Notes under the pieces: generated by a model
Told to the model about the DNA's origin: nothing
The model's input: only the letters and a program-made list of their open reading frames with translations
Database searches by the model: none
NCBI RefSeq assembly: GCF_044324875.1
Contig: NZ_CP172185.1
Length of the DNA: 64,000 nt
DNA from: Escherichia coli
Lineage (GTDB): Bacteria > Pseudomonadota > Gammaproteobacteria > Enterobacterales > Enterobacteriaceae
Direction: 5' to 3' (one strand)
Made by a program: the position numbers and the translations under genes
In this document: piece after piece, positions 699 through 26,987 of the stretch
Numbering within the stretch: position 1 is the first letter of the stretch
Layout: each line of letters opens with the position of its first letter

Positions 699-906
699 AT
701 CTTTCCTCGCGATGAAATAGTGGCGACAACAGGCAATATGAGACAAACGCGAGTGAATTTTATATTCCATTGCCGCTAATTTCCATGAATTAAAAATTCC
801 AGTTAGCCATGATGCGGTCGATTGTTGCCGGAAAAGTGATGATCTATCTGTTAGGCTATGTAGTAGCGAAAATTAATCAGGATGTTTCAGTCCAGAGGAG
901 TATGGT

Positions 907-1542: not shown

Positions 1543-1554
1543 AGTAAAGCATAG

Positions 1555-3656
<2,102 letters not shown>

Positions 3657-3821
3657 TTAGTTAATTCTCTGTGTCGTGCGCGTCCCAGCTTGAAAAAACG
3701 TAATAATAGTGAAAGGTTTACTCATAAATGAGCGGCATTTTGCGTAAACCTGCGCCAGTTGGCAACTTATTACAGCCATTGGCGGCACGCGTTGCTAATT
3801 CGCGATGGTGATTTTATTTCC

Positions 3822-3837
3822 ACGCAAACGGTTTCGT
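3822..3837. promoter_or_regulatory. PurR operator (pur box) in the purL leader
   Basis: ACGCAAACGGTTTCGT matches the 16-bp pur box consensus ACGCAAACGTTTTCNT, about 80 bp upstream of the purL start codon. Confidence 0.7.
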
Positions 3838-3913
3838 CAGCGCATCAGATTCTTTATAATGACGCCCGTTTCCCCCCCTTGGGTACACCGAAAGCTTAGA
3901 AGACGAGAGACTT

Positions 3914-6900: not shown

Positions 6901-7801
6901 TGACAACCCGGAGTGTGCCGACCAGGAGCACCAGGCGAAATCAAACGACGCCGATCCGGGCCTGAATGTAAAACTGTCGTTCGATATCAACGAAGATGTG
7001 GCAGCACCGTATATTGCCACTGGCGCACGTCCGAAAGTTGCTGTGCTGCGTGAGCAGGGCGTGAACTCGCATGTTGAAATGGCGGCAGCTTTCCACCGTG
7101 CAGGCTTCGATGCTATCGACGTGCATATGAGCGACCTGCTGGCTGGACGCACGGGCCTGGAGGATTTCCACGCCCTGGTCGCGTGCGGTGGTTTCTCCTA
7201 CGGTGATGTGCTGGGTGCCGGTGAAGGTTGGGCGAAGTCTATCCTGTTCAATGACCGTGTACGCGATGAGTTTGCAACCTTCTTCCACCGTCCGCAAACG
7301 CTGGCGCTGGGGGTATGTAACGGTTGCCAGATGATGTCTAATCTGCGCGAACTGATCCCTGGTAGTGAGTTGTGGCCACGTTTTGTGCGCAATACCTCCG
7401 ATCGCTTTGAAGCGCGTTTCAGCCTGGTTGAAGTAACCCAAAGTCCGTCTCTGCTGTTGCAGGGGATGGTGGGCTCGCAAATGCCGATTGCTGTCTCTCA
7501 TGGTGAAGGGCGCGTGGAAGTGCGTGATGCGGCGCATCTGGCGGCACTGGAAAGCAAAGGGCTGGTGGCACTGCGCTATGTCGATAACTTCGGCAAAGTC
7601 ACTGAAACCTACCCAGCTAACCCGAACGGTTCTCCGAATGGTATTACGGCGGTCACGACTGAAAGTGGTCGAGTCACCATTATGATGCCGCACCCGGAAC
7701 GTGTTTTCCGTACTGTCAGCAACTCCTGGCATCCGGAAAACTGGGGCGAGGATGGGCCGTGGATGCGTATTTTCCGCAATGCACGTAAGCAGTTGGGGTA
7801 A
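3914..7801 (+). CDS. purL: phosphoribosylformylglycinamidine synthase (FGAM synthase)
   Basis: 1295-aa ORF; single-chain large PurL with AIRS-like domains and a C-terminal glutamine amidotransferase (GVCNGCQ catalytic Cys motif). Confidence 0.97.
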
Positions 7802-7858
7802 GCCGTCAACCCATTGGTTTTGCAGCCGGATGAGGCATTAAGCACCAACTACTATTAT

Positions 7859-7885
7859 AAGCTCCCAACTTCGGGAGCTTTTTTG
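7859..7885 (+). terminator. rho-independent terminator of purL
   Basis: GC-rich hairpin AGCTCCCAACTTCGGGAGCT followed by TTTTTTG, about 60 bp after the purL stop. Confidence 0.8.
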
Positions 7886-7999
7886 TGTCTGTAAATCACG
7901 ACAATGGGTGGTTTGCCGTGTCGCTTTCTGGCGACATTTAACTCATTGATTTTAATATTATCTAATAAGTTTATCTTAAGTTGTCTCTTTTTAGCGACA
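7886..7999. promoter_or_regulatory. three GlrR activator binding sites (TGTC-N10-GACA) upstream of glmY
   Basis: TGTCtgtaaatcacGACA at 7886-7903, TGTCgctttctggcGACA at 7919-7936, TGTCtctttttagcGACA at 7982-7999; all have exact 10-bp spacing and lie 90-230 bp upstream of the sigma54 promoter. Confidence 0.8.
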
Positions 8000-8088
8000 C
8001 AGTGGCTGATTTACAGCCAAATAGCGAAGAAGCCATAAATCCCTCAAAGCGGCGTATAATCAGTACGTTACCAAACTATTTTCTTTAT

Positions 8089-8104
8089 TGGCACAGTTAC
8101 TGCA
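8089..8104 (+). promoter_or_regulatory. sigma54 (-24/-12) promoter of glmY, overlapping a possible sigma70 -10 (CATAAT)
   Basis: TGGCAC-agtta-CTGCA matches TGGCAC-N5-TTGCW; predicted start about 12 nt downstream at 8116. Confidence 0.8.
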
Positions 8105-8115
8105 TAATAGTAACC

Positions 8116-8300
8116 AGTGGCTCATTCACCGACTTATGTCAGCCCCTTCGGGACGTGCTACATAAAATTCGAATGACGCACAACAAGGTGCCTGCCGTCC
8201 AACTTCTGATATCAGCGTAGCTATATCAACCATCGGGCGAAACGTCGAGTTAGGCACCGCCTTATTCCATAACAAAGCCGGGTAATTCCCGGCTTTGTTG
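8116..8300 (+). ncRNA. glmY: GlmY small regulatory RNA
   Basis: About 185 nt from the sigma54 start (AGTGGCTCATTCACCGAC...) to an intrinsic terminator with a perfect 12-bp stem AACAAAGCCGGG/CCCGGCTTTGTT (8271-8299); sits immediately upstream of glrK as expected. Confidence 0.85.
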
Positions 8301-8357
8301 TATCTGAACTTCCCCTCGGTTAGCATCAGGCTATTCGCGTCTGACGAGAGTAACACC

Positions 8358-9785
8358 TTGAAACGCTGGCCCGTTTTTCCCCGCTCATTACGACAACTGG
8401 TAATGCTGGCATTTTTGCTGATTCTGCTGCCCCTGTTGGTGCTGGCATGGCAAGCCTGGCAAAGCCTGAATGCACTTAGCGATCAGGCGGCGCTGGTTAA
8501 CCGCACTACGCTTATTGATGCCCGGCGTAGTGAAGCGATGACCAACGCGGCACTGGAGATGGAGCGCAGCTACCGTCAGTATTGCGTGCTGGACGACCCT
8601 ACGCTTGCGAAGGTTTATCAAAGCCAGCGCAAGCGTTATAGCGAAATGCTCGATGCCCACGCAGGCGTACTGCCAGACGATAAACTTTACCAGGCATTGC
8701 GTCAGGACTTGAACAATCTGGCCCAACTTCAGTGTAACAACAGTGGTCCCGATGCCGCCGCCGCCGCGCGTCTTGAAGCCTTTGCCAGTGCCAATACCGA
8801 AATGGTGCAGGCCACGCGCACAGTGGTGTTCTCTCGTGGGCAGCAACTTCAGCGTGAAATCGCCGAACGTGGGCAATATTTTGGTTGGCAATCGCTGGTG
8901 TTATTTCTGGTGAGTCTGGTGATGGTGCTACTTTTCACGAGGATGATTATCGGTCCGGTGAAAAATATCGAGCGCATGATCAACCGGCTGGGGGAAGGGC
9001 GTTCTCTGGGCAATAGTGTCTCGTTCAGTGGACCGAGCGAGTTACGCTCGGTTGGGCAACGTATTCTTTGGTTAAGTGAGCGCCTGTCATGGCTGGAATC
9101 CCAACGTCATCAATTCTTAAGACATTTATCTCATGAATTAAAAACGCCGCTGGCGAGTATGCGCGAGGGCACTGAATTACTGGCTGACCAGGTTGTCGGG
9201 CCGCTTACGCCAGAGCAAAAAGAGGTGGTGAGCATCCTCGATAGCAGCAGCCGCAATTTGCAAAAACTGATCGAACAACTGCTTGATTACAACCGTAAAC
9301 AGGCGGACAGTGCGGTGGAACTGGAGAATGTTGAATTAGCACCGCTGGTGGAGACAGTAGTTTCTGCTCATAGCCTGCCCGCACGGGCTAAAATGATGCA
9401 TACCGACGTCGATCTCCAAGCAACAGCTTGCCTGGCGGAGCCAATGCTGCTGATGAGCGTACTGGATAATCTTTACTCCAATGCTGTGCACTACGGGACT
9501 GAATCCGGTAACATTTGCCTTCGCAGCAGTTTACATGGCGCGCGGGTTTATATTGATGTCATCAATACAGGCACACCCATTCCGCAAGAGGAACGCGCCA
9601 TGATCTTTGAACCCTTTTTTCAGGGAAGCCACCAGCGAAAAGGGGCGGTGAAGGGCAGCGGTCTGGGATTAAGCATTGCCAGGGATTGTATTCGCCGTAT
9701 GCAGGGGGAACTGTATCTGGTCGACGAGAGCGGGCAAGACGTTTGCTTCCGCATTGAATTGCCGTCGTCGAAAAACACGAAATAA
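8358..9785 (+). CDS. glrK: sensor histidine kinase of the GlrK/GlrR (QseE/QseF) two-component system
   Basis: HisKA H-box LSHELKTPL, HATPase motifs, two TM segments; probable TTG start at 8358 (475 aa), the six-frame ORF extends to 8295. Confidence 0.9.
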   Translation: MKRWPVFPRSLRQLVMLAFLLILLPLLVLAWQAWQSLNALSDQAALVNRTTLIDARRSEAMTNAALEMERSYRQYCVLDDPTLAKVYQSQRKRYSEMLDAHAGVLPDDKLYQALRQDLNNLAQLQCNNSGPDAAAAARLEAFASANTEMVQATRTVVFSRGQQLQREIAERGQYFGWQSLVLFLVSLVMVLLFTRMIIGPVKNIERMINRLGEGRSLGNSVSFSGPSELRSVGQRILWLSERLSWLESQRHQFLRHLSHELKTPLASMREGTELLADQVVGPLTPEQKEVVSILDSSSRNLQKLIEQLLDYNRKQADSAVELENVELAPLVETVVSAHSLPARAKMMHTDVDLQATACLAEPMLLMSVLDNLYSNAVHYGTESGNICLRSSLHGARVYIDVINTGTPIPQEERAMIFEPFFQGSHQRKGAVKGSGLGLSIARDCIRRMQGELYLVDESGQDVCFRIELPSSKNTK

Positions 9786-9949
9786 TGTTAAGAGCCTATC
9801 CCATCAGGCTATTTTATTTGCCAGTTCGGCCCCGGGCGGAGCTCGAAATCCTCACGTACGACATGTACGCTCCGGTTTCTCCGCGCTGTCTGTGCCCAAA
9901 CTGCCTGCAACAATTACGCCCACTGGGATAGGCATTAAGTCTGGTGAAT

Positions 9950-10663
9950 ATGCGACACATTTTTCAACGATTATTGCCCCGACGGCTGTGGCTGGCAGGG
10001 CTGCCATGTCTGGCATTGCTGGGTTGCGTGCAGAGTCACAATAAACCAGCCATTGATACGCCAGCAGAAGAAAAAATTCCGGTTTATCAACTGGCTGACT
10101 ATCTTTCTACTGAATGTAGCGACATCTGGGCGCTGCAAGGTAAATCAACCGAAACCAATCCGCTTTACTGGCTGCGGGCGATGGATTGTGCTGATCGTTT
10201 AATGCCTGCGCAGTCGCGTCAGCAAGCTCGCCAATATGACGACGGCAGCTGGCAAAAGACCTTTAAACAAGGGATTTTGCTCGCCGACGCCAAAATTACG
10301 CCGTATGAGCGCCGCCAGCTGGTCGCGCGCATTGATGCGCTAAGTACCGAGATCCCGGCACAGGTTCGCCCTCTGTATCAACTCTGGCGCGACGGTCAGG
10401 CGCTGCAACTGCAACTGGCGGAAGAGCGCCAACGCTACGGCAAACTCCAGCAATCCAGCGACAGCGAGCTGGATACATTGCGCCAGCAACATCACGTTCT
10501 ACAGCAGCAACTGGAACTCACCACCCGCAAGCTGGAAAACCTGACTGATATTGAACGCCAGCTCTCGACCCGCAAACCGGCTGGAAATTTCTCGCCGGAT
10601 ACGCCGCACGAGAGTGAAAAGCCCGCGCCATCCACCCATGAGGTCACTCCTGATGAGCCATAA
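9950..10663 (+). CDS. qseG: outer-membrane lipoprotein QseG (YfhG)
   Basis: Lipoprotein signal peptide with lipobox LLGC; Gln-rich coiled-coil C-terminus; lies between glrK and glrR and overlaps the glrR start by 11 nt. Confidence 0.8.
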   Translation: MRHIFQRLLPRRLWLAGLPCLALLGCVQSHNKPAIDTPAEEKIPVYQLADYLSTECSDIWALQGKSTETNPLYWLRAMDCADRLMPAQSRQQARQYDDGSWQKTFKQGILLADAKITPYERRQLVARIDALSTEIPAQVRPLYQLWRDGQALQLQLAEERQRYGKLQQSSDSELDTLRQQHHVLQQQLELTTRKLENLTDIERQLSTRKPAGNFSPDTPHESEKPAPSTHEVTPDEP

Positions 10664-11987
10664 ACCTGCGCATTTATTATTGGTCGATGACGATCCGGGA
10701 TTGCTGAAACTGCTTGGCCTGCGCCTGACCAGCGAAGGCTACAGCGTGGTCACGGCGGAAAGTGGTGCTGAAGGATTACGGGTACTGAATCGCGAAAAAG
10801 TAGATTTAGTTATCAGCGACCTGCGGATGGATGAAATGGATGGTATGCAGCTGTTTGCTGAAATCCAGAAAGTGCAGCCGGGAATGCCGGTAATTATTCT
10901 TACCGCACATGGTTCTATTCCCGATGCCGTTGCTGCAACACAGCAGGGCGTGTTCAGTTTCCTCACCAAGCCTGTCGATAAAGACGCGCTATATCAGGCA
11001 ATTGATGATGCGTTGGAACAATCCGCGCCAGCCACCGACGAACGCTGGCGCGAGGCGATTGTCACCCGCAGCCCGCTGATGCTGCGTTTGCTGGAACAGG
11101 CGCGGCTGGTGGCGCAATCAGACGTCAGCGTTTTGATTAATGGCCAGAGCGGCACCGGGAAAGAGATTTTCGCCCAGGCTATCCACAACGCCAGCCCGCG
11201 CAATAGCAAACCATTTATTGCTATTAACTGTGGTGCATTGCCCGAGCAATTGCTGGAGTCGGAGCTGTTTGGTCATGCGCGTGGCGCGTTTACTGGCGCT
11301 GTCAGCAATCGCGAAGGTTTATTCCAGGCGGCGGAAGGCGGTACGCTATTTCTCGATGAGATTGGCGATATGCCCGCACCGTTGCAGGTCAAACTGCTGC
11401 GCGTGTTGCAGGAGCGTAAAGTGCGCCCGCTGGGCAGTAACCGCGATATTGATATCGACGTGCGGATTATTTCCGCCACTCACCGCGACCTGCCAAAAGC
11501 GATGGCGCGCGGGGAATTCCGCGAAGATCTCTATTACCGCCTCAATGTTGTCAGCCTGAAAATTCCGGCTCTGGCAGAGCGCACAGAAGACATTCCGCTA
11601 CTGGCAAATCACCTGTTGCGCCAGGCGGCAGAGCGACATAAACCGTTTGTCCGCGCGTTCTCCACCGATGCAATGAAACGCCTGATGACCGCTAGCTGGC
11701 CGGGTAATGTACGCCAGTTGGTCAACGTGATTGAACAGTGCGTGGCGCTGACCTCATCTCCGGTGATTAGTGATGCATTAGTAGAGCAGGCGCTGGAGGG
11801 TGAAAATACGGCGCTGCCAACCTTTGTTGAGGCACGTAATCAGTTTGAACTCAACTATTTGCGTAAGCTGCTGCAAATTACCAAAGGCAACGTCACCCAC
11901 GCGGCGAGAATGGCGGGGCGCAACCGGACAGAATTTTATAAACTGCTTTCCCGACACGAGCTGGATGCAAACGATTTCAAGGAATGA
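10653..11987 (+). CDS. glrR: sigma54-dependent response regulator GlrR (QseF)
   Basis: Receiver domain (LLVDDD...D), AAA+ sigma54-interaction domain (GESGTGKE-like, GAFTGA motif) and C-terminal HTH; internal ATG at 10653 gives 444 aa. Confidence 0.92.
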
Positions 11988-12011
11988 ATTGGCGTTATGT
12001 GTTACGTTTAG

Positions 12012-13948: not shown

Positions 13949-15202
13949 ATGTTAAAGCGTGAAATGAACATTGCCGATTATGATGCCGAACTGTGGCAGG
14001 CTATGGAGCAGGAAAAAGTACGTCAGGAAGAGCACATCGAACTGATCGCCTCCGAAAACTACACCAGCCCGCGCGTAATGCAGGCGCAGGGTTCTCAGCT
14101 GACCAACAAATATGCTGAAGGTTATCCGGGCAAACGCTACTACGGCGGTTGCGAGTATGTTGATATCGTTGAACAACTGGCGATCGATCGTGCGAAAGAA
14201 CTGTTCGGTGCTGACTACGCTAACGTCCAGCCGCACTCCGGCTCCCAGGCTAACTTTGCGGTGTACACCGCGCTGCTGGAACCAGGTGATACCGTTCTGG
14301 GTATGAACCTGGCGCATGGCGGTCACCTGACTCACGGTTCTCCGGTTAACTTCTCCGGTAAACTATACAACATCGTTCCTTACGGTATCGATGCTACCGG
14401 TCATATCGACTACGCCGATCTGGAAAAACAAGCCAAAGAACACAAACCGAAAATGATTATCGGTGGCTTCTCTGCATATTCCGGCGTGGTGGACTGGGCG
14501 AAAATGCGTGAAATCGCTGACAGCATCGGTGCTTACCTGTTCGTTGATATGGCGCACGTTGCGGGCCTGGTTGCAGCTGGCGTCTACCCGAACCCGGTTC
14601 CTCATGCTCACGTTGTTACTACCACCACTCACAAAACCCTGGCGGGTCCGCGCGGCGGCCTGATCCTGGCGAAAGGTGGTAGCGAAGAGCTGTACAAAAA
14701 ACTGAACTCTGCGGTTTTCCCTGGTGGTCAGGGTGGTCCGTTGATGCACGTAATCGCCGGTAAAGCGGTTGCTCTGAAAGAAGCGATGGAGCCTGAGTTC
14801 AAAACTTACCAGCAGCAGGTCGCTAAAAACGCTAAAGCGATGGTAGAAGTGTTCCTGGAACGCGGCTACAAAGTGGTTTCCGGCGGCACTGATAACCACC
14901 TGTTCCTGGTTGATCTGGTTGATAAAAACCTGACCGGTAAAGAAGCTGACGCCGCTCTGGGCCGTGCTAACATCACCGTCAACAAAAACAGCGTACCGAA
15001 CGATCCGAAGAGCCCGTTTGTGACCTCCGGTATTCGCGTGGGTACTCCGGCGATTACGCGTCGCGGCTTCAAAGAAGCAGAAGCGAAAGAACTGGCTGGC
15101 TGGATGTGTGACGTGCTGGACAGCATCAATGATGAAGCCGTTATCGAGCGCATCAAAGGTAAAGTTCTCGACATCTGTGCACGTTACCCGGTTTACGCAT
15201 AA
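13949..15202 (+). CDS. glyA: serine hydroxymethyltransferase
   Basis: 417-aa [19 protein letters not shown]...; PLP-lysine motif [14 protein letters not shown]. Confidence 0.97.
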
Positions 15203-15223
15203 GCGAAACGGTTAATCTGTTGA

Positions 15224-15251
15224 AAAAAGGCTTCCTTCGGGAAGCCTTTCT
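15224..15251. terminator. bidirectional intrinsic terminator between glyA and yphH
   Basis: AAAAAAGGCTTCC-ttcg-GGAAGCCTTTCT perfect hairpin flanked by A and T runs. Confidence 0.8.
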
Positions 15252-15265
15252 ACGTTATCGCGCCA

Positions 15266-16459
15266 TCAAATCTGCCGTAACTGCGCCTCAACATACAAAT
15301 AGCCAATTCCCAGTACCTGTTGTGCGCGGCTTAATTGCCCAAAGCCAATTTTCGTCGCTTTCACGCTCGGTCCTTCGTCGCGGTCGAACGGGTTAAATCC
15401 CGTCTGGCGAATAATGGTATTAAGCCAGTGCTCACCAAAGGCACAACTGCGACCGTACAACCAAATCTGATTAATATTGAGGATGTTGAGGAAGTTATAC
15501 AGACTCAAACCAATGGCATTGGCAGAGCGATCAACCCAGCTGGTGATCCACGGTTCTCCACTCTGCCAGGCAGCGATTAACTGCGCTGTTGTCAGTTTTT
15601 CAGGATCAAGCTGAGTATTAACCGGTTGTGATTTTAGCCATACCCGTGCCTGTTTTTTTAATGCACTTAACGAGGCGACGGTTTCCAGGCAGCCGTAACG
15701 TCCACAGTCGCAGACGACGCCATTCGGATTAACGATGGTGTGACCAATCTGTCCGCTACCATACAAACAGCCGCGATAAATTTGCTCGTTAATCACGAAC
15801 GACGAGCCAATACCGTAATCAACGTTGATCACGCAGAAATCCCGGCCCTGCGAATTATTTTGCCATTTCTCCGCCAGCGCCAGCATCACGCAGTCATTAT
15901 CGACCATCACCCGAATGCCGAGCTTCTCTTCCAGCAGATACTTCACCTCAACCGGCGTTGTCCACGGTGCTTGCGGCATGGTTTGCGACACGCCAGTCAC
16001 CGGATCAACCTGACCGTGGATTGCCAGCGCCAGGTTGATGGTACGGTCCGGCCACAATTTACGGTGGCGATGCCAGCATTTTTCGATTTCGGACAGCAGC
16101 GCCTGCGGCGTCGGTGCATCAATCTGTAAATACTCAAATTCGCCTTTCGGACTTAAACAGGCGTTAGCGACCTGACACTCAATACTGGTAGGCGTCACGT
16201 TCAGGCACAGCGTCCAGTCACCTTCCGGCGCAATCAGCCATGTACCGCTACTATGCCCGCGCGTCTGGCTTTCATCGTCGATATTCACCACCCGTTTTTC
16301 GCTTTCCAGTTCCTGCAAAATATTACTGACCGCCGGAATCGAAATTTGCGCCAGCCGGGCCAGGGTTGATTTATTGGCGCGCTTTTGCCGGTACAGCAGT
16401 TCCAGAATCACGCATTTGTTATGGTGGCGAATCTGTTGATTATTAATGCAGGCTCTCAT
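15266..16459 (-). CDS. yphH: ROK-family (NagC/Mlc-like) transcriptional regulator
   Basis: N-terminal HTH, ROK sugar-kinase-like fold with zinc motif CDCGRYGCLE; 397 aa from the internal Met; divergent from the yphG-B cluster. Confidence 0.85.
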   Translation of the reverse strand: MRACINNQQIRHHNKCVILELLYRQKRANKSTLARLAQISIPAVSNILQELESEKRVVNIDDESQTRGHSSGTWLIAPEGDWTLCLNVTPTSIECQVANACLSPKGEFEYLQIDAPTPQALLSEIEKCWHRHRKLWPDRTINLALAIHGQVDPVTGVSQTMPQAPWTTPVEVKYLLEEKLGIRVMVDNDCVMLALAEKWQNNSQGRDFCVINVDYGIGSSFVINEQIYRGCLYGSGQIGHTIVNPNGVVCDCGRYGCLETVASLSALKKQARVWLKSQPVNTQLDPEKLTTAQLIAAWQSGEPWITSWVDRSANAIGLSLYNFLNILNINQIWLYGRSCAFGEHWLNTIIRQTGFNPFDRDEGPSVKATKIGFGQLSRAQQVLGIGYLYVEAQLRQI

Positions 16460-16576
16460 CTTCACTAAACCTTGTTTAGTTAATTGCGTGATTATTCCGC
16501 GAAAACATTGCCAGATTGTTCAATACACTGCCACAAATCTTTTAATTCAGTATGTCTTGTTAATATTGAGGGCACC

Positions 16577-19500
16577 ATGACTCCAGTAAAAGTGTGGCAA
16601 GAGCGCGTTGAGATCCCGACCTATGAAACCGGGCCGCAGGATATACATCCCATGTTCTTGGAAAATCGCGTTTATCAGGGATCGTCCGGCGCGGTTTATC
16701 CCTACGGCGTGACCGATACGCTGAGCGAGCAGAAAACCCTGAAATCCTGGCAGGCGGTGTGGCTGGAAAACGACTACATCAAAGTGATGATCCTGCCGGA
16801 ACTGGGCGGTCGGGTGCATCGCGCGTGGGATAAAGTGAAACAGCGCGATTTTGTCTATCACAATGAAGTCATTAAACCGGCGCTGGTGGGGCTGCTGGGA
16901 CCGTGGATCTCCGGCGGGATTGAGTTTAACTGGCCGCAACACCATCGCCCGACCACCTTTATGCCCGTTGATTTCACCCTCGAAGCCCATGAAGACGGCG
17001 CACAAACCGTGTGGGTAGGCGAAACGGAGCCGATGCATGGTTTACAGGTGATGACAGGTTTCACCCTGCGCCCTGACCGGGCGGCGCTGGAAATCGCCAG
17101 CCGCGTCTATAACGGCAACGCCACGCCGCGTCATTTCTTGTGGTGGGCCAACCCGGCAGTGAAAGGGGGTGAAGGGCATCAGAGCGTCTTCCCGCCGGAT
17201 GTAACGGCGGTGTTTGATCACGGCAAACGGGCCGTCTCTGCTTTCCCCATCGCCACCGGCACTTACTACAAAGTGGACTACTCCGCCGGAGTGGACATTT
17301 CTCGCTATAAAAATGTGCCTGTTCCAACCTCATATATGGCTGAAAAATCACAGTACGATTTTGTTGGCGCGTGGTGTCACGATGAAGATGGCGGTTTGCT
17401 GCACGTTGCCAACCACCATATTGCGCCAGGTAAAAAACAGTGGAGCTGGGGACACAGTGAATTTGGCCAGGCGTGGGATAAGAGTCTGACCGACAATAAC
17501 GGCCCGTATATCGAACTGATGACCGGTATTTTTGCCGATAACCAGCCTGATTTTACCTGGCTTGATGCGTACGAAGAGAAGCGTTTCGAGCAGTATTTCC
17601 TGCCTTATCATTCTCTGGGCATGGTGCAAAATGCCTCCCGCGATGCGGTGATAAAACTCCAGCGTAGTGAGCGGGGGATTGAGTGGGGGCTGTATGCCAT
17701 CTCTCCGTTGAAAGGATACCGCCTGGCGATCCGCGAAATCGGCAAATGCAACGCGTTGCTCGATGATGCCGTGGCCCTGACACCAGCGACCGCCATCCAG
17801 GGCGTGTTGCACGGTATCAATCCTGAAAGGCTGACCATTGAACTCTCCGATGCCGACGGCAATATCATACTGAGTTATCAGGAACATCAGCCGCAAGAGC
17901 TGCCGTTGCCGGACGTCGCCAAAGCGCCACTGGCAGCACAAGACATTACCAGTACAGATGAAGCCTGGTTTATCGGTCAGCATCTGGAGCAATATCATCA
18001 CGCCAGCCGTTCACCGTTCGATTACTACCTGCGCGGCGTGGCGCTGGATCCGCTGGATTATCGCTGTAATCTGGCGCTGGCGATGCTGGAATATAACCGC
18101 GCCGATTTCCCGCAAGCGGTGGCGTATGCCACTCAGGCGCTGAAACGCGCACATGCGCTGAACAAAAATCCGCAGTGCGGACAGGCGAGCTTGATTCGCG
18201 CCAGTGCTTACGAACGTCAGGGGCAATATCAACAAGCCGAAGAGGATTTCTGGCGTGCGGTCTGGAGCGGCAACAGTAAAGCCGGTGGCTATTATGGTCT
18301 GGCACGGCTGGCGGCGCGTAATGGTCACGTCGACGCTGGTCTGGATTTTTGCCAACAAAGTCTTCGCGCCTGCCCAACCAATCAGGAAGTGCTTTGCCTG
18401 CATAATCTGCTGCTGGTGTTAAGTGGTCGTCAGGACAACGCGCGTTTGCAGCGTGAGAAACTGCTGCGTGATTATCCGCTGAACGCCACTCTGTGGTGGC
18501 TGAACTGGTTCGATGGTCGTAGCGAATCAGCCCTCGCGCAGTGGCGCGGTCTGTGTCAGGGACGCGACGTTAACGCCCTGATGACCGCCGGGCAACTGAT
18601 TAACTGGGGAATGCCCACCCTGGCGGCAGAGATGCTGAACGCACTGGACTGCCAGCGCACGCTGCCGCTTTATCTGCAGGCGAGTTTATTGCCGAAAGCT
18701 GAACGCGGCGAACTGGTCGCAAAAGCCATTGATGTCTTCCCACAGTTTGTCCGTTTCCCGAATACGCTGGAAGAAGTGGCGGCGCTGGAGAGTATTGAAG
18801 AGTGCTGGTTTGCCCGTCATTTACTGGCCTGCTTCTACTACAACAAGCGCAGCTACAACAAAGCCATTGCCTTATGGCAACGTTGCGTAGAGATGTCGCC
18901 GGAGTTTGCCGACGGCTGGCGCGGGTTAGCGATCCATGCGTGGAATAAGCAACACGATTATGAGCTGGCCGCGCGTTATCTTGATAATGCTTATCAGCTT
19001 GCGCCGCAGGATGCACGTCTGCTTTTCGAACGGGATTTGCTGGATAAGTTAAGTGGAGCCACACCGGAGAAACGACTGGCGCGTCTGGAAAATAATCTGG
19101 AAATTGCGCTGAAACGCGACGACATGACCGCAGAACTGCTCAATTTGTGGCATCTCACTGGTCAAGCAGACAAAGCGGCGGATATTCTCGCCACGCGCAA
19201 ATTCCACCCGTGGGAAGGCGGGGAAGGGAAGGTCACCAGTCAGTTTATCCTCAATCAGCTATTACGCGCCTGGCAGCACCTTGATGCCAGAGAGCCGCAG
19301 CAGGCCAGCGAACTGCTTCATGCCGCGCTGCATTATCCGGAAAATTTAAGCGAAGGCCGTTTACCCGGGCAAACTGATAACGACATCTGGTTCTGGCAGG
19401 CGATATGCGCTAACGCGCAGGGCGATGAAACTGAAGCGACGCGTTGTTTACGTCTGGCGGCGACCGGCGATCGCACCATTAACATTCACAGTTATTACAA

Positions 19501-19858
19501 CGATCAGCCGGTTGATTATCTCTTCTGGCAAGGAATGGCGCTGCGACTGCTGGGCGAACAACAAATCGCACAGCAACTGTTTAGTGAAATGAAACAGTGG
19601 GCGCAAGAGATGTCGAAAACCAGTATCGAGGCGGATTTCTTTGCTGTTTCACAACCTGACCTGTTGTCGCTGTATGGCGATTTACAACAGCAGCATAAAG
19701 AAAAATGCCTGATGGTGGCGATGCTGGCGTCCGCGGGACTAGGGGAGGTTGCGCAATATGAATCTGCTCGCGCTGAATTGACGGCGATTAATCCGGCCTG
19801 GCCGAAAGCAGCATTATTCACCACCGTGATGCCTTTTATTTTTAACCGCGTTCACTAA
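16577..19858 (+). CDS. yphG: large uncharacterized protein with C-terminal TPR-like repeats
   Basis: 1093-aa ORF from ATG 16577 (the six-frame ORF extends to 16484); first gene of a co-directional cluster with an ABC sugar transporter. Confidence 0.8.
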   Translation: MTPVKVWQERVEIPTYETGPQDIHPMFLENRVYQGSSGAVYPYGVTDTLSEQKTLKSWQAVWLENDYIKVMILPELGGRVHRAWDKVKQRDFVYHNEVIKPALVGLLGPWISGGIEFNWPQHHRPTTFMPVDFTLEAHEDGAQTVWVGETEPMHGLQVMTGFTLRPDRAALEIASRVYNGNATPRHFLWWANPAVKGGEGHQSVFPPDVTAVFDHGKRAVSAFPIATGTYYKVDYSAGVDISRYKNVPVPTSYMAEKSQYDFVGAWCHDEDGGLLHVANHHIAPGKKQWSWGHSEFGQAWDKSLTDNNGPYIELMTGIFADNQPDFTWLDAYEEKRFEQYFLPYHSLGMVQNASRDAVIKLQRSERGIEWGLYAISPLKGYRLAIREIGKCNALLDDAVALTPATAIQGVLHGINPERLTIELSDADGNIILSYQEHQPQELPLPDVAKAPLAAQDITSTDEAWFIGQHLEQYHHASRSPFDYYLRGVALDPLDYRCNLALAMLEYNRADFPQAVAYATQALKRAHALNKNPQCGQASLIRASAYERQGQYQQAEEDFWRAVWSGNSKAGGYYGLARLAARNGHVDAGLDFCQQSLRACPTNQEVLCLHNLLLVLSGRQDNARLQREKLLRDYPLNATLWWLNWFDGRSESALAQWRGLCQGRDVNALMTAGQLINWGMPTLAAEMLNALDCQRTLPLYLQASLLPKAERGELVAKAIDVFPQFVRFPNTLEEVAALESIEECWFARHLLACFYYNKRSYNKAIALWQRCVEMSPEFADGWRGLAIHAWNKQHDYELAARYLDNAYQLAPQDARLLFERDLLDKLSGATPEKRLARLENNLEIALKRDDMTAELLNLWHLTGQADKAADILATRKFHPWEGGEGKVTSQFILNQLLRAWQHLDAREPQQASELLHAALHYPENLSEGRLPGQTDNDIWFWQAICANAQGDETEATRCLRLAATGDRTINIHSYYNDQPVDYLFWQGMALRLLGEQQIAQQLFSEMKQWAQEMSKTSIEADFFAVSQPDLLSLYGDLQQQHKEKCLMVAMLASAGLGEVAQYESARAELTAINPAWPKAALFTTVMPFIFNRVH

Positions 19859-19954
19859 ACCTTATTAACTGTAATATTTGAGCGGCACGCGCTGCCGCTC
19901 ACGCTCAAATAATTAAAATAAGCCGTTGTAAATAAAAACCCTACAGGAGGTACT

Positions 19955-20938
19955 ATGCCTAAAAAAATGAGAACAACCCGTAATCTATTATTAATGGCTA
20001 CGCTATTAGGTAGCGCACTATTTGCCAGGGCTGCGGATAAAGAAATGACCATTGGCGCAATATACCTTGATACCCAGGGATATTACGCTGGTGTGCGTCA
20101 GGGCGTTCAGGATGCGGCAAAAGATTCTTCAGTACAGGTACAGTTAATTGAAACTAACGCCCAGGGTGATATTTCGAAAGAAAGTACCTTTGTTGATACC
20201 CTCGTGGCGCGTAATGTCGATGCCATTATTTTATCGGCAGTGTCTGAAAATGGCAGTAGCCGTACCGTTCGTCGCGCCAGTGAAGCGGGTATTCCGGTAA
20301 TTTGCTACAACACCTGTATTAATCAAAAAGGCGTCGATAAATATGTCTCGGCGTATCTGGTCGGCGATCCGCTGGAATTTGGTAAAAAACTGGGTAACGC
20401 TGCCGCCGATTATTTTATTGCCAACAAAATTGACCAGCCGAAAATTGCCGTCATCAATTGCGAAGCCTTTGAAGTTTGTGTGCAGCGCCGTAAAGGATTT
20501 GAAGAAGTATTAAAAATCCGTGTTCCCGGCGCGCAAATTGTCGCTAATCAGGAAGGGACTGTTTTAGATAAAGCGATTTCCGTTGGTGAAAAACTAATTA
20601 TCTCCACGCCGGATCTCAACGCCATTATGGGGGAATCGGGCGGTGCGACACTCGGCGCGGTAAAAGCGGTACGTAATCAAAATCAGACCGGAAAAATTGC
20701 TGTTTTCGGTTCGGATATGACCACTGAAATTGCTCAGGAGCTGGAAAACAATCAGGTGCTGAAAGCGGTGGTGGATATTTCCGGTAAGAAAATGGGCAAT
20801 GCTGTTTTCGCGCAAACTTTGAAGGTTATCAATAAACAAGCCGACGGTGAAAAAGTGATTCAGGTGCCTATCGATCTCTATACCAAAACGGAAGACGGTA
20901 AACAGTGGCTGGCAACGCACGTTGATGGTCTGCCCTAA
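19955..20938 (+). CDS. yphF: ABC transporter periplasmic sugar-binding protein
   Basis: Signal peptide, periplasmic-binding-protein type I fold (ribose/LacI-like); strong AGGAGG Shine-Dalgarno. Confidence 0.85.
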   Translation: MPKKMRTTRNLLLMATLLGSALFARAADKEMTIGAIYLDTQGYYAGVRQGVQDAAKDSSVQVQLIETNAQGDISKESTFVDTLVARNVDAIILSAVSENGSSRTVRRASEAGIPVICYNTCINQKGVDKYVSAYLVGDPLEFGKKLGNAAADYFIANKIDQPKIAVINCEAFEVCVQRRKGFEEVLKIRVPGAQIVANQEGTVLDKAISVGEKLIISTPDLNAIMGESGGATLGAVKAVRNQNQTGKIAVFGSDMTTEIAQELENNQVLKAVVDISGKKMGNAVFAQTLKVINKQADGEKVIQVPIDLYTKTEDGKQWLATHVDGLP

Positions 20939-20960
20939 TCGCTGATTCGCAGAGGTCCCT

Positions 20961-22472
20961 ATGTTCACGGCAACAGAGGCAGTCCCGGTAGCAATAGTGG
21001 TAGCTGGAAATAAGCGTTATCCCGGCGTCGTTGCGCTGGATAACGTTAACTTCACGCTCAATAAAGGAGAAGTTCGTGCGCTGTTAGGCAAAAACGGCGC
21101 GGGCAAATCGACCCTCATTCGAATGCTTACCGGCAGTGAACGTCCGGATAGCGGTGATATCTGGATTGGCGAGACGCGACTGGAAGGTGACGAAGCTACG
21201 TTGACTCGCCGTGCCGCTGAACTGGGGGTTCGTGCGGTTTATCAGGAGTTAAGTCTGGTGGAGGGACTGACGGTGGCGGAAAACCTCTGCCTCGGTCAGT
21301 GGCCCCGCCGCAACGGCATGATTGATTACCTGCAAATGGCGCAGGATGCCCAACGTTGCTTACAGGCGCTGGGCGTTGACGTTAGCCCTGAACAACTTGT
21401 TTCAACGCTAAGCCCGGCGCAAAAGCAACTGGTGGAAATTGCGCGGGTGATGAAGGGCGAGCCGCGCGTGGTCATTCTTGATGAACCTACCAGTTCGCTT
21501 GCCAGTGCGGAAGTTGAACTGGTGATCAGCGCGGTTAAAAAGATGTCGGCACTGGGCGTGGCGGTGATTTATGTCAGCCACCGGATGGAAGAAATCCGCC
21601 GCATTGCCTCCTGTGCCACCGTTATGCGCGATGGTCAGGTAGCGGGCGATGTGATGCTCGAAAACACCTCCACGCATCATATTGTGTCGCTAATGCTCGG
21701 GCGCGATCACGTTGATATTGCGCCGGTTTCCCCTCAGGAAATTGTCGATCAGGCTGTGCTGGAAGTCCGTGCGTTACGCCATAAGCCCAAGCTGGAGGAT
21801 ATCAGCTTTACGCTCCGTCGTGGCGAAGTGCTCGGCATTGCTGGCCTGCTGGGGGCAGGGCGCAGTGAATTGTTGAAAGCCATAGTTGGGCTGGAGACGT
21901 ATGAACAGGGCGAAATTGTTATCAACGGCGAGAAAATCACGCGCCCCGATTACGGCGACATGCTGAAACGCGGCATTGGCTATACGCCAGAAAACCGCAA
22001 AGAAGCGGGGATCATTCCCTGGCTGGGCGTTGACGAAAATACAGTGCTGACCAATCGGCAAAAAATCAGCGCCAACGGTGTGCTGCAATGGTCCACCATC
22101 CGCCGCCTGACCGAAGAGGTGATGCAGCGGATGACGGTCAAGGCCGCCAGTAGCGAAACGCCCATCGGCACGCTTTCTGGCGGCAATCAGCAAAAAGTGG
22201 TGATCGGTCGTTGGGTCTATGCCGCCAGCCAGATTTTGTTGCTCGACGAGCCAACGCGTGGCGTCGATATCGAAGCCAAACAGCAGATTTACCGTATTGT
22301 CCGCGAGCTGGCTGCCGAAGGAAAAAGTGTGGTGTTTATCTCCAGTGAAGTGGAGGAGTTGCCGCTGGTGTGTGACCGCATCCTGTTATTACAGCACGGT
22401 ACGTTCTCGCAGGAGTTTCACTCGCCGGTCAATGTGGATGAGCTGATGTCCGCCATTCTGTCTGTGCACTGA
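20961..22472 (+). CDS. yphE: ABC transporter ATP-binding protein, duplicated ATPase (sugar-import type)
   Basis: Two nucleotide-binding domains with Walker A GKNGAGKST / GLLGAGRSE and signature LSGGNQQK. Confidence 0.9.
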   Translation: MFTATEAVPVAIVVAGNKRYPGVVALDNVNFTLNKGEVRALLGKNGAGKSTLIRMLTGSERPDSGDIWIGETRLEGDEATLTRRAAELGVRAVYQELSLVEGLTVAENLCLGQWPRRNGMIDYLQMAQDAQRCLQALGVDVSPEQLVSTLSPAQKQLVEIARVMKGEPRVVILDEPTSSLASAEVELVISAVKKMSALGVAVIYVSHRMEEIRRIASCATVMRDGQVAGDVMLENTSTHHIVSLMLGRDHVDIAPVSPQEIVDQAVLEVRALRHKPKLEDISFTLRRGEVLGIAGLLGAGRSELLKAIVGLETYEQGEIVINGEKITRPDYGDMLKRGIGYTPENRKEAGIIPWLGVDENTVLTNRQKISANGVLQWSTIRRLTEEVMQRMTVKAASSETPIGTLSGGNQQKVVIGRWVYAASQILLLDEPTRGVDIEAKQQIYRIVRELAAEGKSVVFISSEVEELPLVCDRILLLQHGTFSQEFHSPVNVDELMSAILSVH

Positions 22473-22496
22473 TGAATTTTACCGAGGAACCTGAAG

Positions 22497-23495
22497 ATGT
22501 CTGCTTCGTCATTACCATTGCCGCAGGGCAAGAGCGTCTCGCTCAAACAATTTGTCAGTCGCCATATTAATGAGATCGGTTTGCTGGTGGTGATCGCCAT
22601 TCTTTATCTGGTCTTCTCCCTGAACGCGCCGGGCTTTATCTCATTGAATAACCAGATGAACGTGCTGCGCGATGCCGCCACCATTGGGATTGCCGCCTGG
22701 GCGATGACGCTGATTATTATCTCCGGTGAAATTGATGTCAGCGTTGGGCCGATGGTGGCTTTTGTCTCGGTGTGCCTGGCATTTTTGCTGCAATTTGAAG
22801 TTCCGCTGGCGGTGGCGTGTCTGCTGGTGTTGCTGTTAGGCGCGCTGATGGGAACGCTGGCCGGGGTGCTGCGCGGCGTGTTTAACGTACCAAGTTTCGT
22901 TGCCACACTGGGGCTGTGGAGCGCCCTGCGCGGAATGGGGCTGTTTATGACCAACGCCCTGCCAGTGCCGATTGACGAAAACGAGGTACTGGACTGGCTG
23001 GGTGGACAATTTCTCGGAGTGCCGGTATCCGCGCTGATCATGATGGTGTTGTTTGCGCTGTTTGTGTTCATCAGCCGCAAAACCGCCTTCGGGCGCTCGG
23101 TTTTTGCTGTTGGCGGTAATGCCACTGCAGCACAGTTGTGCGGCATCAACGTTCGTCGGGTGCGCATTCTTATCTTTACCCTTTCGGGATTATTAGCGGC
23201 GGTGACCGGCATTTTGTTGGCGGCGCGCCTCGGTTCCGGTAACGCAGGTGCCGCAAACGGTCTGGAGTTTGACGTCATCGCCGCGGTCGTGGTCGGTGGT
23301 ACGGCACTTTCCGGCGGTCGCGGTTCCCTGTTTGGTACATTGCTTGGTGTGTTGGTGATTACGCTAATCGGTAACGGTCTGGTGCTGCTCGGGATTAACT
23401 CCTTTTTCCAGCAGGTGGTGCGCGGCGTCATCATCGTGGTGGCGGTGCTGGCGAATATCTTGCTGACTCAGCGAAGCAGTAAAGCGAAACGCTAA
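22497..23495 (+). CDS. yphD: ABC transporter permease (RbsC/AraH-like)
   Basis: 332-aa polytopic hydrophobic protein immediately after yphE. Confidence 0.85.
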   Translation: MSASSLPLPQGKSVSLKQFVSRHINEIGLLVVIAILYLVFSLNAPGFISLNNQMNVLRDAATIGIAAWAMTLIIISGEIDVSVGPMVAFVSVCLAFLLQFEVPLAVACLLVLLLGALMGTLAGVLRGVFNVPSFVATLGLWSALRGMGLFMTNALPVPIDENEVLDWLGGQFLGVPVSALIMMVLFALFVFISRKTAFGRSVFAVGGNATAAQLCGINVRRVRILIFTLSGLLAAVTGILLAARLGSGNAGAANGLEFDVIAAVVVGGTALSGGRGSLFGTLLGVLVITLIGNGLVLLGINSFFQQVVRGVIIVVAVLANILLTQRSSKAKR

Positions 23496-23560
23496 ACCTA
23501 AACGCCCCTGGCGCGGGTGCGGCAGGGATGAAAATTAATCGTATTGTTAATGAGGGATTT

Positions 23561-24622
23561 ATGAAAACGATGCTGGCAGCTTATTTACCAGGAAATTCGA
23601 CCGTCGATCTGCGGGAAGTTGCGGTGCCGACGCCGGGGATTAACCAGGTACTGATCAAAATGAAATCCTCCGGGATTTGCGGAAGTGATGTCCACTATAT
23701 CTATCATCAACACCGTGCCACGGCAGCGGCACCCGATAAACCGTTATACCAGGGATTTATCAACGGTCATGAACCGTGCGGGCAGATTGTGGCGATGGGG
23801 CAAGGCTGCCGCCATTTTAAAGAGGGCGACCGCGTGCTGGTGTATCACATTTCTGGCTGTGGTTTTTGCCCGAACTGCCGCCGCGGCTTTCCTATCTCTT
23901 GTACTGGCAAAGGAAAAGCGGCTTACGGCTGGCAGCGTGACGGCGGTCATGCCGAATACCTGCTGGCGGAAGAAAAAGATCTGATCCTGCTCCCGGACGC
24001 GCTGAGCTATGAAGATGGTGCGTTTATCAGTTGCGGCGTTGGTACAGCGTATGAAGGGATTTTGCGCGGCGAAGTTTCCGGCAGTGATAACGTGCTGGTG
24101 GTCGGTCTGGGGCCGGTCGGCATGATGGCGATGATGCTGGCGAAAGGTCGCGGTGCAAAAAGGATCATCGGCGTTGATATGCTGCCGGAACGTCTGGCGA
24201 TGGCGAAACAGTTAGGGGTGATGGATCATGGCTATTTAGCAACGACCGAAGGTCTGCCGCAGATTATCGCCGAACTTACCCACGGTGGCGCGGATGTTGC
24301 GCTCGATTGTTCCGGTAATGCCGCAGGTCGCTTACTGGCGTTGCAATCCACTGCTGACTGGGGACGGGTGGTTTACATCGGAGAAACCGGAAAAGTGGAG
24401 TTCGAGGTTAGCGCCGATCTGATGCATCATCAACGGCGGATTATTGGCTCCTGGGTGACCAGTCTGTTCCATATGGAAAAATGCGCCCACGATTTAACGG
24501 ACTGGAAACTGTGGCCGCGTAATGCCATTACCCATCGCTTCACGCTGGAACAGGCAGGAGATGCCTATGCGCTGATGGCGAGCGGTAAATGCGGGAAAGT
24601 TGTGATTAACTTCCCGGATTAA
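23561..24622 (+). CDS. yphC: zinc-dependent alcohol/polyol dehydrogenase (MDR family)
   Basis: GHEPCG catalytic zinc motif, CxxCxxC structural zinc site, GLGPVG Rossmann motif; internal Met start (353 aa). Confidence 0.85.
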   Translation: MKTMLAAYLPGNSTVDLREVAVPTPGINQVLIKMKSSGICGSDVHYIYHQHRATAAAPDKPLYQGFINGHEPCGQIVAMGQGCRHFKEGDRVLVYHISGCGFCPNCRRGFPISCTGKGKAAYGWQRDGGHAEYLLAEEKDLILLPDALSYEDGAFISCGVGTAYEGILRGEVSGSDNVLVVGLGPVGMMAMMLAKGRGAKRIIGVDMLPERLAMAKQLGVMDHGYLATTEGLPQIIAELTHGGADVALDCSGNAAGRLLALQSTADWGRVVYIGETGKVEFEVSADLMHHQRRIIGSWVTSLFHMEKCAHDLTDWKLWPRNAITHRFTLEQAGDAYALMASGKCGKVVINFPD

Positions 24623-24633
24623 GGAGTCAGCGG

Positions 24634-25505
24634 ATGACCATCTATACGTTATCTCACGGGCCGCTAGAGCTGGACGTTTCTGACCGGGGCGGTGTCATCG
24701 AAGGCTTCTGGCGTGACGCGACGCCGCTCTTACGTCCCGGTAAAAAAAGCGGTGTGGCAACCGATGCCTCTTGTTTTCCGCTGGTGCCGTTTGCAAACCG
24801 GGTGAGCGGCAATCGTTTTGTCTGGCAGGGGCGTGAGTATCAACTGCAACCGAATGTTGAGTGGGATGCGCACTATCTGCACGGCGACGGCTGGCTGGGG
24901 CAGTGGCAATGTGTCTCGCGCAGCGAAGATAGCTTGTGTCTGGTGTATGAACATCGCAGCGGTGTTTATCACTATCGGGTAAGTCAGGCGTTTCATTTAA
25001 CGGCAGATACGCTGACGGTGACGCTCTCTGTCACCAATCAAGGGACAGAGACGCTGCCATTTGGTACCGGCTGGCATCCTTATTTTCCGTTGTCACCACA
25101 AACGCGGATTCAGGCGCAGGCGAGCGGTTACTGGCTGGAGCGGGAGCAGTGGCTGGCGGGTGAGTTTTCGAGCAGCTACCGCAGGAGCTGGATTTCAACC
25201 AGCTCGCGCCGTTGCCGCACCAGTGGGTGAACAATGGCTTTGCCGGATGGAATGGTCAGGCCCGCATCGAGCAGCCGCAGGAGGGTTATGCCATCATCAT
25301 GGAAACGACGCCACCTGCACCATGTTATTTCATCTTTGTTTCCGACCCGGCGTTTGATAAAGGATATGCGTTTGATTTCTTCTGTCTGGAACCGATGAGC
25401 CATGCGCCGGATGACCATCATCGCCCGGAAGGGGGTGATCTCATTGCGCTTGCACCAGGGGAATCAACAACTTCAGAGATGTCGTTGCGGGTTGCGTTAC
25501 TGTAA
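24634..25505 (+). pseudogene. yphB: aldose 1-epimerase-family (mutarotase-like) gene interrupted by a 1-nt frameshift
   Basis: N-terminal frame 24634-25230 and C-terminal frame 25164-25505 overlap; total span 872 nt (3n-1); the frame change maps to GAGTTTTCGAG at about 25162-25170. Confidence 0.7.
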
Positions 25506-25531
25506 TTTATAAAATGCCGGATAAGGCGTTC

Positions 25532-26433
<902 letters not shown>

Positions 26434-26987
26434 TTTTTTTCCAGGAGATGCTCCTGCATGGCTTTCAGATATGCATTTTCTGCGCGAAGATAACGCAGCT
26501 CATTCTTCATCTCTTCCGGCGTCATGTTTGCCTCGTTTTCATGGGTATCATCAGAACGGGTCATGCTTTTCTCCTTCCAGCGCCTGATAAAGGCCTCATT
26601 ACCAGATTTGCGGTAGCCTTTTATCCAGTTTTTAACCGTGTTGTGGCTGGGAATGTTAAACCGGGCAGCTACCCGGGGTAGAGACTCAGAATGCCCGAGA
26701 GCATAAAGAACCACGCAAAGTTTATCTTCAGGAGAATAGCTACGCTTGTGTCTGCAATCCAGTGCCCGAGGACCGTGAAGAAGAAAAAGATTAATCCAGT
26801 GTGAGAGGCTGGTGTGAGAAAGTTGAAAGAGTTTTGCCGTAGAAATGATGCCTGCATGACCGGCCAGGTAATGATTTACAGCGGCAAGTTTTACTTCAAA
26901 TGAATGTTTCATAAACTGCACCTTCAGATGTCAGATTATGTCCAACATTTGGGGTGCAGTTCATTCACGCCGCATCCGGCATCTTTC

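Follow-up and report, generated by a model that had tools for sequence, protein, structure and literature searches.

We analysed a window of 64,000 nucleotides of Escherichia coli DNA. Positions 15266-25505 are the E. coli yphH/yphGFEDCB sugar-uptake cluster, which is already known but still uncharacterised. In it yphH is divergent from yphG-F-E-D-C-B, and every named gene was located as follows, together with three further features:

15266-16459, minus strand: yphH, ROK-family regulator, 397 aa as annotated; the ORF reaches back to a GTG at 16465
16464-16480, no strand: palindrome ACTAAAC-CTT-GTTTAGT, candidate YphH operator
16577-19858, plus strand: yphG, 1093 aa, DUF5107 (E 1.4e-55) and TPR families
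19879-19901, plus strand: hairpin in the yphG-yphF spacer, GC-rich stem TGAGCGGCA / TGCCGCTCA, 5-nt loop
19955-20938, plus strand: yphF, CUT2-type periplasmic sugar-binding protein (Peripla_BP_4) with signal peptide
20961-22472, plus strand: yphE, fused double ABC ATPase with two ABC_tran domains
22497-23495, plus strand: yphD, CUT2 permease (BPD_transp_2)
23528-24622, plus strand: yphC, zinc-dependent medium-chain dehydrogenase (ADH_N and ADH_zinc_N)
24634-25505, plus strand: yphB, aldose 1-epimerase (Aldose_epim), here split into ORFs of 198 and 97 aa
25532-26963, minus strand: IS1397, IS3 family, 1432 bp, TTC target duplication

Domain families were assigned for all seven cluster genes (Pfam-type HMM search), and coordinates and domain matches agreed with the gene content, order and domain assignments given in an earlier note made from the sequence alone. 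The cluster was matched in 5425 of 5426 complete E. coli genomes by sequence search. Set against K-12 and the RefSeq annotation, every gene but yphB has its full length. The yphB frameshift that had been reported was traced to deletion of a single G between window positions 25168 and 25169. This throws the C-terminal third of the gene out of frame, and with it the CLEPMSH motif that holds the conserved Glu; as read here yphB is inactivated in the source strain by the 1-bp deletion. Because it is absent from all 5021 complete E. coli genomes matching the 61-bp stretch, the deletion is either private to the source strain or a sequencing error. The cluster had also been described as partly decayed; since the other genes are full length this can refer to the yphB lesion only and was otherwise overstated, and decay beyond yphB was rejected. 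IS1397 has inserted downstream of the cluster, into the REP palindrome that separates yphB from yphA, and interrupts no gene. It lies outside the operon and marks its 3' end.

All genes from yphG to yphB are on one strand, with intergenic gaps of 11-96 bp. A promoter and terminator scan of the intergenic regions of the cluster gave no convincing site, and no consensus between yphG and yphB. The 96-nt yphG-yphF spacer folds as a whole at -22.2 kcal/mol (z -2.1), and in all 9 of the other loci examined, from enterics and Aeromonas, a hairpin of unrelated sequence was found 3' of the yphG homologue. The GC-rich hairpin in the 96-bp gap, with a hairpin recurring at this place in other loci, could mean that yphG is a separate transcription unit which ends there and stands beside yphFEDCB by accident, functionally unrelated to the transporter. 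We consider this very improbable: the E. coli hairpin has no T run after its stem, and the gap lacks any promoter-like or terminator-like consensus. Moreover, when neighbourhoods were surveyed in 80 genomes of three phyla (70 of the 80 loci non-enteric), a monosaccharide-class sugar transporter, either CUT2 ABC or XylE-like MFS, was found within 6 kb of the YphG homologue at 50 loci, with the MFS gene at a median distance of 93 bp; chance is excluded.

YphF, YphE and YphD together have the make-up of a CUT2 ABC importer: YphF is a Peripla_BP_4 binding protein carrying a signal peptide, YphE is the fused double ATPase and YphD the BPD_transp_2 permease. The rbs, mgl, als, ytfQRT-yjfF and lsr operons of E. 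coli share this three-component architecture and these families, and like the yph cluster they have a repressor of their own along with accessory enzymes for sugar processing. Unlike the yph operon, none of them contains a DUF5107-TPR protein. YphF scored below every NCBIfam equivalog cut-off (best AlsB, 65 bits against 335, and MglB, 60 against 420). YphC belongs to the zinc MDR family, with a GroES-like ADH_N domain and an ADH_zinc_N Rossmann domain, and likewise fell below every equivalog cut-off (Tdh 171 bits against 380, IolM 169 against 450, GatD 108 against 550). The earlier name 'polyol dehydrogenase' was thus right as to the zinc dehydrogenase family, while the polyol substrate was a family-level guess. 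PDB relatives of YphF and YphC were too distant to give the name of a ligand.

YphH has the two parts of a ROK repressor of the NagC/Mlc type: a ROK sugar-binding domain (E 1.5e-32) and an N-terminal winged HTH, for which residues 18-55 gave a weak MarR-type match just under the cut-off (E 3.2e-4). NagC and Mlc orthology were both rejected (110 and 107 bits against NCBIfam cut-offs of 650 and 530). PMC4288165 counts YphH as the third ROK repressor of E. coli and as uncharacterised. The perfect palindrome at 16464-16480 lies 5 nt upstream of the yphH ATG and is unique within the window (0.13 expected by chance), and variants of it are kept in the Enterobacter, Citrobacter and Aeromonas loci. 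We infer that it is a candidate YphH operator.

YphG was assigned to DUF5107 (PF17128) with 188.9 bits over residues 39-324, against a gathering score of 24.4. Since the first full-length structure model had low confidence precisely in the conserved loops of the N-domain, this domain was re-predicted with a deeper alignment, giving a model with a pLDDT of 94.4. Structure model and fold comparison divide the protein into a DUF5107 domain of aldose-1-epimerase fold (residues 1-345), a second beta-sandwich (about 346-440) and a TPR superhelix of ~630 residues (about 460-1093). The helical part matched genuine TPR superhelices, i.e. a tandem helix-turn-helix solenoid, and an (alpha/alpha)6 toroid of the GH15, GH65 or GH94 type was rejected on these matches. 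The TPR C-terminus had been noted before, and the N-terminal domain, then left without a fold, can now be placed by the model. The suggestion that it might be a glycoside hydrolase or polysaccharide-binding domain was not borne out, as the domain is mutarotase-like and neither module was recognisable. Nor did we find what had been named as evidence against a sugar operon, a YphG unrelated to carbohydrates and not co-transcribed with yphFEDC: its fold is that of aldose 1-epimerases and yphF follows on the same strand after 96 bp. No signal peptide was predicted for E. coli YphG, so that it is probably cytoplasmic and would not meet polysaccharide.

In fold comparison the YphG N-domain showed the beta-supersandwich of galactose mutarotase, while accessory mutarotase-like domains of glycoside hydrolases scored 16.6 or less. 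No Aldose_epim (PF01263) match to YphG was obtained at E 1e-3 or better in the Pfam HMM search, and hhalign gave no match of the DUF5107 profile to YphB alone. Against an alignment of 15 epimerase sequences the match was collinear but not significant (E 0.23, probability 0.3%). With the mutarotase residues R93, H118, H188 and E319 (epimerase-alignment numbering) as active-site reference, this low-confidence alignment puts YphG H122/H123 no more than 3 residues from the first His, W110 at the Arg, and either Q202 or the non-conserved H186 at the second His; it stops short of the Glu, for which E313 and E333 are candidates. Since the second catalytic His falls on Gln202 or on a non-conserved position, albeit in a weak alignment, classical mutarotase chemistry in YphG is doubtful. 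In an alignment of 70 sequences with 34-71% identity to YphG, the many invariant or near-invariant polar residues include E64, D85, K86, E116, H122, H123, R124, N179, N192, H215, D240, E313, Q323, D325 and E333. Loops of the TPR part are conserved as well, HPWEGGEG among them.

YphG differs in several ways from the aldose 1-epimerases GalM (PF01263), YphB (PDB 3NRE) and YeaD: it has no significant sequence or profile match to them, is three times longer, with the extra beta-sandwich and the solenoid, apparently does not conserve the second catalytic His, and is often encoded beside a true epimerase. Its likeness to the GH186 beta-1,2-glucanases OpgG and OpgD is much weaker than that to mutarotases, and these enzymes, unlike YphG, are periplasmic, lack TPR and act on beta-1,2-glucan. 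PDB 5CD6 (BDI_1685 from Parabacteroides distasonis, deposited as 'TPR-domain containing protein') has 580 residues, with a TPR part that is short compared with that of YphG. The deposition title gives no function, and no paper on 5CD6 was found in the open literature searched.

The YphG family comprises 3938 clusters at 50% identity, with full-length homologues in Enterobacterales, Bacteroidota and Firmicutes and the full ~1100-aa architecture retained down to 35% identity. Near the homologues of our survey we found a ROK or AraC regulator at 53 of 80 loci (ROK in enterics, AraC elsewhere), an Aldose_epim gene at 16 of 80, and a beta-galactosidase family, GH2_20 or GH35, at 34 of the 70 non-enteric loci. 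Among 177 close neighbours GH2 (n=28) and GH35 (n=8) were far above any other glycoside hydrolase family. The GH2 neighbours are of subfamily GH2_20 (match to PDB 8U01, E 7.5e-184), which is reported as a beta-galactosidase (PMC12243196). Leloir-pathway genes were not among the recurrent neighbours. The E. coli cluster itself has no galactosidase; the link to galactose comes from the non-enteric loci. Some enteric loci consist just of ROK, YphG, MFS and epimerase, so YphG does not depend on YphC or on the ABC system. Among the more distant homologues, those that carry signal peptides are encoded in polysaccharide utilisation loci or next to AraC, epimerase, GH36 and MFS transporter genes, and for these, outside the cytoplasm, cofactor-independent carbohydrate chemistry would be the likelier kind. 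Because YphG is kept at full length across phyla with recurrent regulator, transporter, galactosidase and epimerase neighbours, genomic context marks it as the conserved core of a module made up of regulator, transporter and enzyme, and not an add-on.

Our preferred reading, held tentatively and a little short of an even chance, is that the yphH/yphGFEDCB genes serve, under the control of a repressor, to salvage a galactose-type monosaccharide or a very small galactoside, and that YphG is the conserved core enzyme of this module. YphG itself most likely works without a cofactor, as an enzyme that acts on the anomeric centre of such a sugar. Periplasmic YphF would bind the sugar and YphD with YphE would import it. 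In the cytoplasm YphG would hold it in the aldose-1-epimerase-fold domain for acid-base chemistry at the anomeric carbon, by which anomers or ring forms might be interconverted or a small glycoside cleaved, with the TPR superhelix as a possible lid or oligomerisation scaffold. YphB would equilibrate the aldose anomers and YphC would carry out an NAD(P)-linked redox step; with yphB frameshifted, the YphB/YphC step would be impaired in the source strain. YphH would repress the divergent promoters, probably via the 16464-16480 palindrome, until it has bound the sugar. A plain mutarotase activity of YphG would be redundant with a genuine epimerase gene beside it, and no simple enzyme model accounts for the 630-residue TPR solenoid.

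A sharper sub-case of this explanation makes YphG the founding member of a glycoside hydrolase or lyase family not yet recognised, whose mutarotase-like beta-sandwich cleaves a small imported beta-galactoside while YphB mutarotates the product. We regard this as unlikely: the adjacent transporters are of monosaccharide classes (CUT2, or sugar-porter MFS closest to XylE), which argues against an oligosaccharide substrate and so weakens the glycosidase variant, no catalytic acid pair was identified, and likeness to CAZy catalytic domains never rose above the accessory-domain level in fold comparison. Alternatively, YphG could be a non-enzymatic sugar-binding adaptor or sensor, whose mutarotase-like domain binds the imported sugar and whose solenoid relays this by protein contact, for instance to the transporter, the regulator or another enzyme. 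This seems quite improbable to us. Partner regulators differ between ROK and AraC and each has its own ligand-binding domain, making a dedicated sensor unnecessary and a conserved partner unlikely; the signal-peptide homologues in polysaccharide utilisation loci are away from cytoplasmic partners; and the beta-sandwich is so densely set with conserved polar residues that it resembles an active site more than a simple binding site.

DUF5107 / PF17128 was not mentioned in the open literature searched, in which we also found no paper pairing any two of yphD, yphE, yphG and yphH, and none joining 'mutarotase-like', 'tetratricopeptide' and 'polysaccharide utilization'. Published microarray lists were uninformative on yph function. 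Induction of yphF in a levoglucosan study was rejected as a functional lead, since many catabolite-derepressed transporters were induced alongside. yphG appears in the literature just as a Klebsiella PCR marker.

The yphGFEDCB operon, which almost every E. coli strain carries, is among the sugar operons of this species that still await a function; YphG, its largest protein, is a member of a big and widespread family for which a structure has been solved. What is new here is a first testable frame for this family, namely its place at the core of the module, the mutarotase fold, and the beta-galactosidases alongside it in Bacteroidota and Firmicutes. If true, galactoside catabolism in gut and soil bacteria would gain a step, and a new enzyme family might come with it. 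On the more speculative side, and rather doubtful at present, DUF5107-TPR proteins as a whole may be an unrecognised family of carbohydrate-active enzymes, in which a mutarotase-like sandwich site is capped by the TPR solenoid and performs a new glycoside-cleaving or ring-rearranging reaction on sugars derived from beta-galactosides. This would mean a previously unknown sugar salvage route in E. coli, and the enzyme family would span three or more phyla with at least 3900 sequence clusters.

We placed the yph genes using an ORF map together with the RefSeq and K-12 annotation of near-identical loci, and assigned families with Pfam:

15266-16459, minus strand: yphH (ROK)
16577-19858, plus strand: yphG (DUF5107 and TPR)
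19955-20938, plus strand: yphF (Peripla_BP_4)
20961-22472, plus strand: yphE (two ABC_tran domains)
22497-23495, plus strand: yphD (BPD_transp_2)
23528-24622, plus strand: yphC (ADH_N and ADH_zinc_N)
24634-25505, plus strand: yphB (Aldose_epim)

These positions and families agree with those of the earlier note, whose overall reading of the cluster was essentially right and its observation real. The 10.2-kb stretch was matched in 5425 of 5426 complete E. coli genomes; the locus thus belongs to the core genome and has been annotated before, and the operon is an already known, uncharacterised orphan. Among the ROK repressors of E. coli, YphH has been listed as the third and as uncharacterised (PMC4288165). 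In the searchable library, no paper was found that mentioned DUF5107 (PF17128) or named two of yphD, yphE, yphG and yphH together, and the few single mentions of yph genes were in expression lists or as PCR markers. YphF carries a signal peptide and is distant from AlsB, MglB, RbsB, YtfQ and the apo structure 5HSG. YphC reached no equivalog cut-off and is placed as a generic zinc MDR enzyme.

The cluster had also been described as partly decayed. The frameshift in yphB was confirmed: alignment to an intact reference showed a single 1-bp deletion between 25168 and 25169, giving two ORFs (198 and 97 aa) and putting the C-terminal third, with its conserved CLEPMSH motif, out of frame. The deletion was found in none of the 5021 complete genomes matching a 61-bp probe across the site, so it is either private to the source strain or a sequencing error. 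Decay goes no further, since every other yph gene is full length. An IS1397 element (1432 bp, TTC target duplication, 25529-26966) lies between the convergent yphB and yphA and interrupts no gene; its insertion point falls exactly within the loop of a REP palindrome (without the insertion, in other strains, GCCGGATAAGGCGTTCACGCCGCATCCGGC). IAI39 and other strains have this insertion too, at 99.5-99.7% identity including the flanks. That decay of the cluster is limited and private is new here.

We then modelled YphG, for which no signal peptide was found. The full-length AlphaFold model (pTM 0.79) had high confidence across the helical region, residues 460-1093, and was poor in the N-terminal loops of highest conservation; residues 1-480 were then modelled separately from an alignment of 70 sequences, with a pLDDT of 94.4. 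From these models YphG is predicted to consist of an aldose-1-epimerase-fold domain, a small beta-sandwich and a TPR solenoid of about 630 residues. This fold assignment for the DUF5107 domain is new, as is the exclusion of a barrel-type glycosidase. YphG was not a member of Aldose_epim by Pfam search, and its profile-profile alignment with epimerases was collinear and insignificant (E 0.23). Of the catalytic residues, the first His is adjoined in this alignment by HH 122-123, the second is not clearly conserved and the Glu was not placed, so that classical mutarotase chemistry is neither shown nor excluded.

An exhaustive HMMER search with residues 1-480 gave 3938 representative clusters (E 1e-3 or better); most members are about 1100 aa long, down to 35% identity. 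Close homologues of full length are spread across Enterobacterales and Aeromonas, and 80 loci (one genome per species) spanned Enterobacterales, Aeromonas, Photobacterium, many Bacteroidota and Firmicutes. Signal peptides are present in more distant homologues (35-38% identity); one of these belongs to a polysaccharide utilisation locus that also holds SusC/D, GH16 and sulfatases, and other distant homologues adjoin esterases or AraC, Aldose_epim, GH36 and a sugar porter. Truncated E. coli variants are frequent in the protein database (P0009, P0033, P0002, P0028, P0042), for example a 900-aa cluster of 1109 members and a 692-aa cluster of 1402, and one E. coli genome has yphG broken into two parts of 810 and 244 aa (locus L003, 2379-5657). 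Some may be contig-end artefacts; those that are not represent recurrent inactivation of yphG.

ORF calling at the 80 loci gave 1045 neighbours, which we grouped by sequence and annotated cluster by cluster. Within 6 kb of the yphG homologue, a monosaccharide-class transporter (XylE-like sugar-porter MFS or CUT2 ABC) was present at 50/80 loci, with the MFS gene at a median of 93 bp, and a ROK or AraC regulator at 53/80; a bona fide Aldose_epim was found at 16/80 and a YphC-like zinc dehydrogenase at 9/80. Several enteric loci have only ROK, YphG, MFS and a YphB-type epimerase; others have both the ABC system and the MFS gene. YphG is therefore no stray member of a catabolic operon. It forms the conserved core of a regulator-transporter-enzyme module, and around this core the ABC system, YphC and even the type of regulator can be exchanged. 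Directly after the homologue at three Firmicutes loci (L025, L051, L072) we observed a cupin-like protein of about 138 aa (weak Ureidogly_lyase match), which may be a further accessory enzyme.

At the non-enteric loci, beta-galactosidase families were found within 6 kb at 34/70, or 39/70 when any galactosidase (GH36 and GH97 counted) was included. An unbiased Pfam census of 177 close neighbours from 66 non-redundant non-enteric loci was led by GH2 (28 proteins) and GH35 (8), with other glycosidase families far behind. Their closeness to PDB 8U01 (E 7.5e-184) assigns the GH2 neighbours to subfamily GH2_20, reported as beta-galactosidase on decorated plant glycans (PMC12243196). In Bacteroidota these galactosidases have signal or lipoprotein peptides; those of Firmicutes and Photobacterium have none. 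Both the place of YphG at the core of a widespread module and the link of this module to beta-galactosidases are new.

Dense polar conservation in the mutarotase-like domain, the secreted paralogues and the beta-galactosidase link point to YphG as a cofactor-independent enzyme, which would act on a galactose-type sugar, or on a very small galactoside, at the anomeric centre. In a variant that fits the fold and the monosaccharide transporters, it would interconvert anomers or ring forms, which would make a neighbouring true epimerase redundant. YphG as a non-catalytic adaptor is possible and less economical, the regulators varying between phyla and each having its own sensor domain. For the E. 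coli cluster, this galactose theme is an extrapolation from other phyla.

The six genes yphGFEDCB lie on one strand with gaps of 96, 22, 24, 32 and 11 bp, and a scan of these gaps found no promoter-like or terminator-like consensus. The yphG-yphF spacer contains a 9-bp GC hairpin without a T run (19879-19901). At 9/9 other enteric and Aeromonas loci the yphG homologue is likewise followed by a GC-rich hairpin, unrelated in sequence, whatever gene comes next; its position right after the stop codon is kept in Escherichia, Enterobacter, Budvicia, Citrobacter, Hafnia and Aeromonas. This suggests a conserved element that attenuates transcription or stabilises the mRNA, not a complete terminator. 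On the other side, a perfect 7+7 palindrome (ACTAAAC-CTT-GTTTAGT, 16464-16480), unique in the window and kept in varied forms in related genera, lies 5 nt upstream of the yphH ATG. It is a candidate operator for YphH, or could form an RNA hairpin that covers the ribosome-binding site of yphH.

The window is 100.0% identical to E. coli MEW and O158:H23 CFIAFB20140388 over 1-12000. Against MEW there is about 1 mismatch per kb at 11-15 kb and, from yphH onward, a sharp rise to 7-40 per kb; the best identity of this segment among the 5426 complete genomes is 98.7%. This implies a recombination breakpoint at the glyA/yphH boundary (about 15000-15300), with the yph-hca segment derived from a lineage outside this collection. 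Farther along, 27500-47500 matches each E. coli genome at a median of 10 places and so holds short dispersed repeats, probably REP/BIME or similar.
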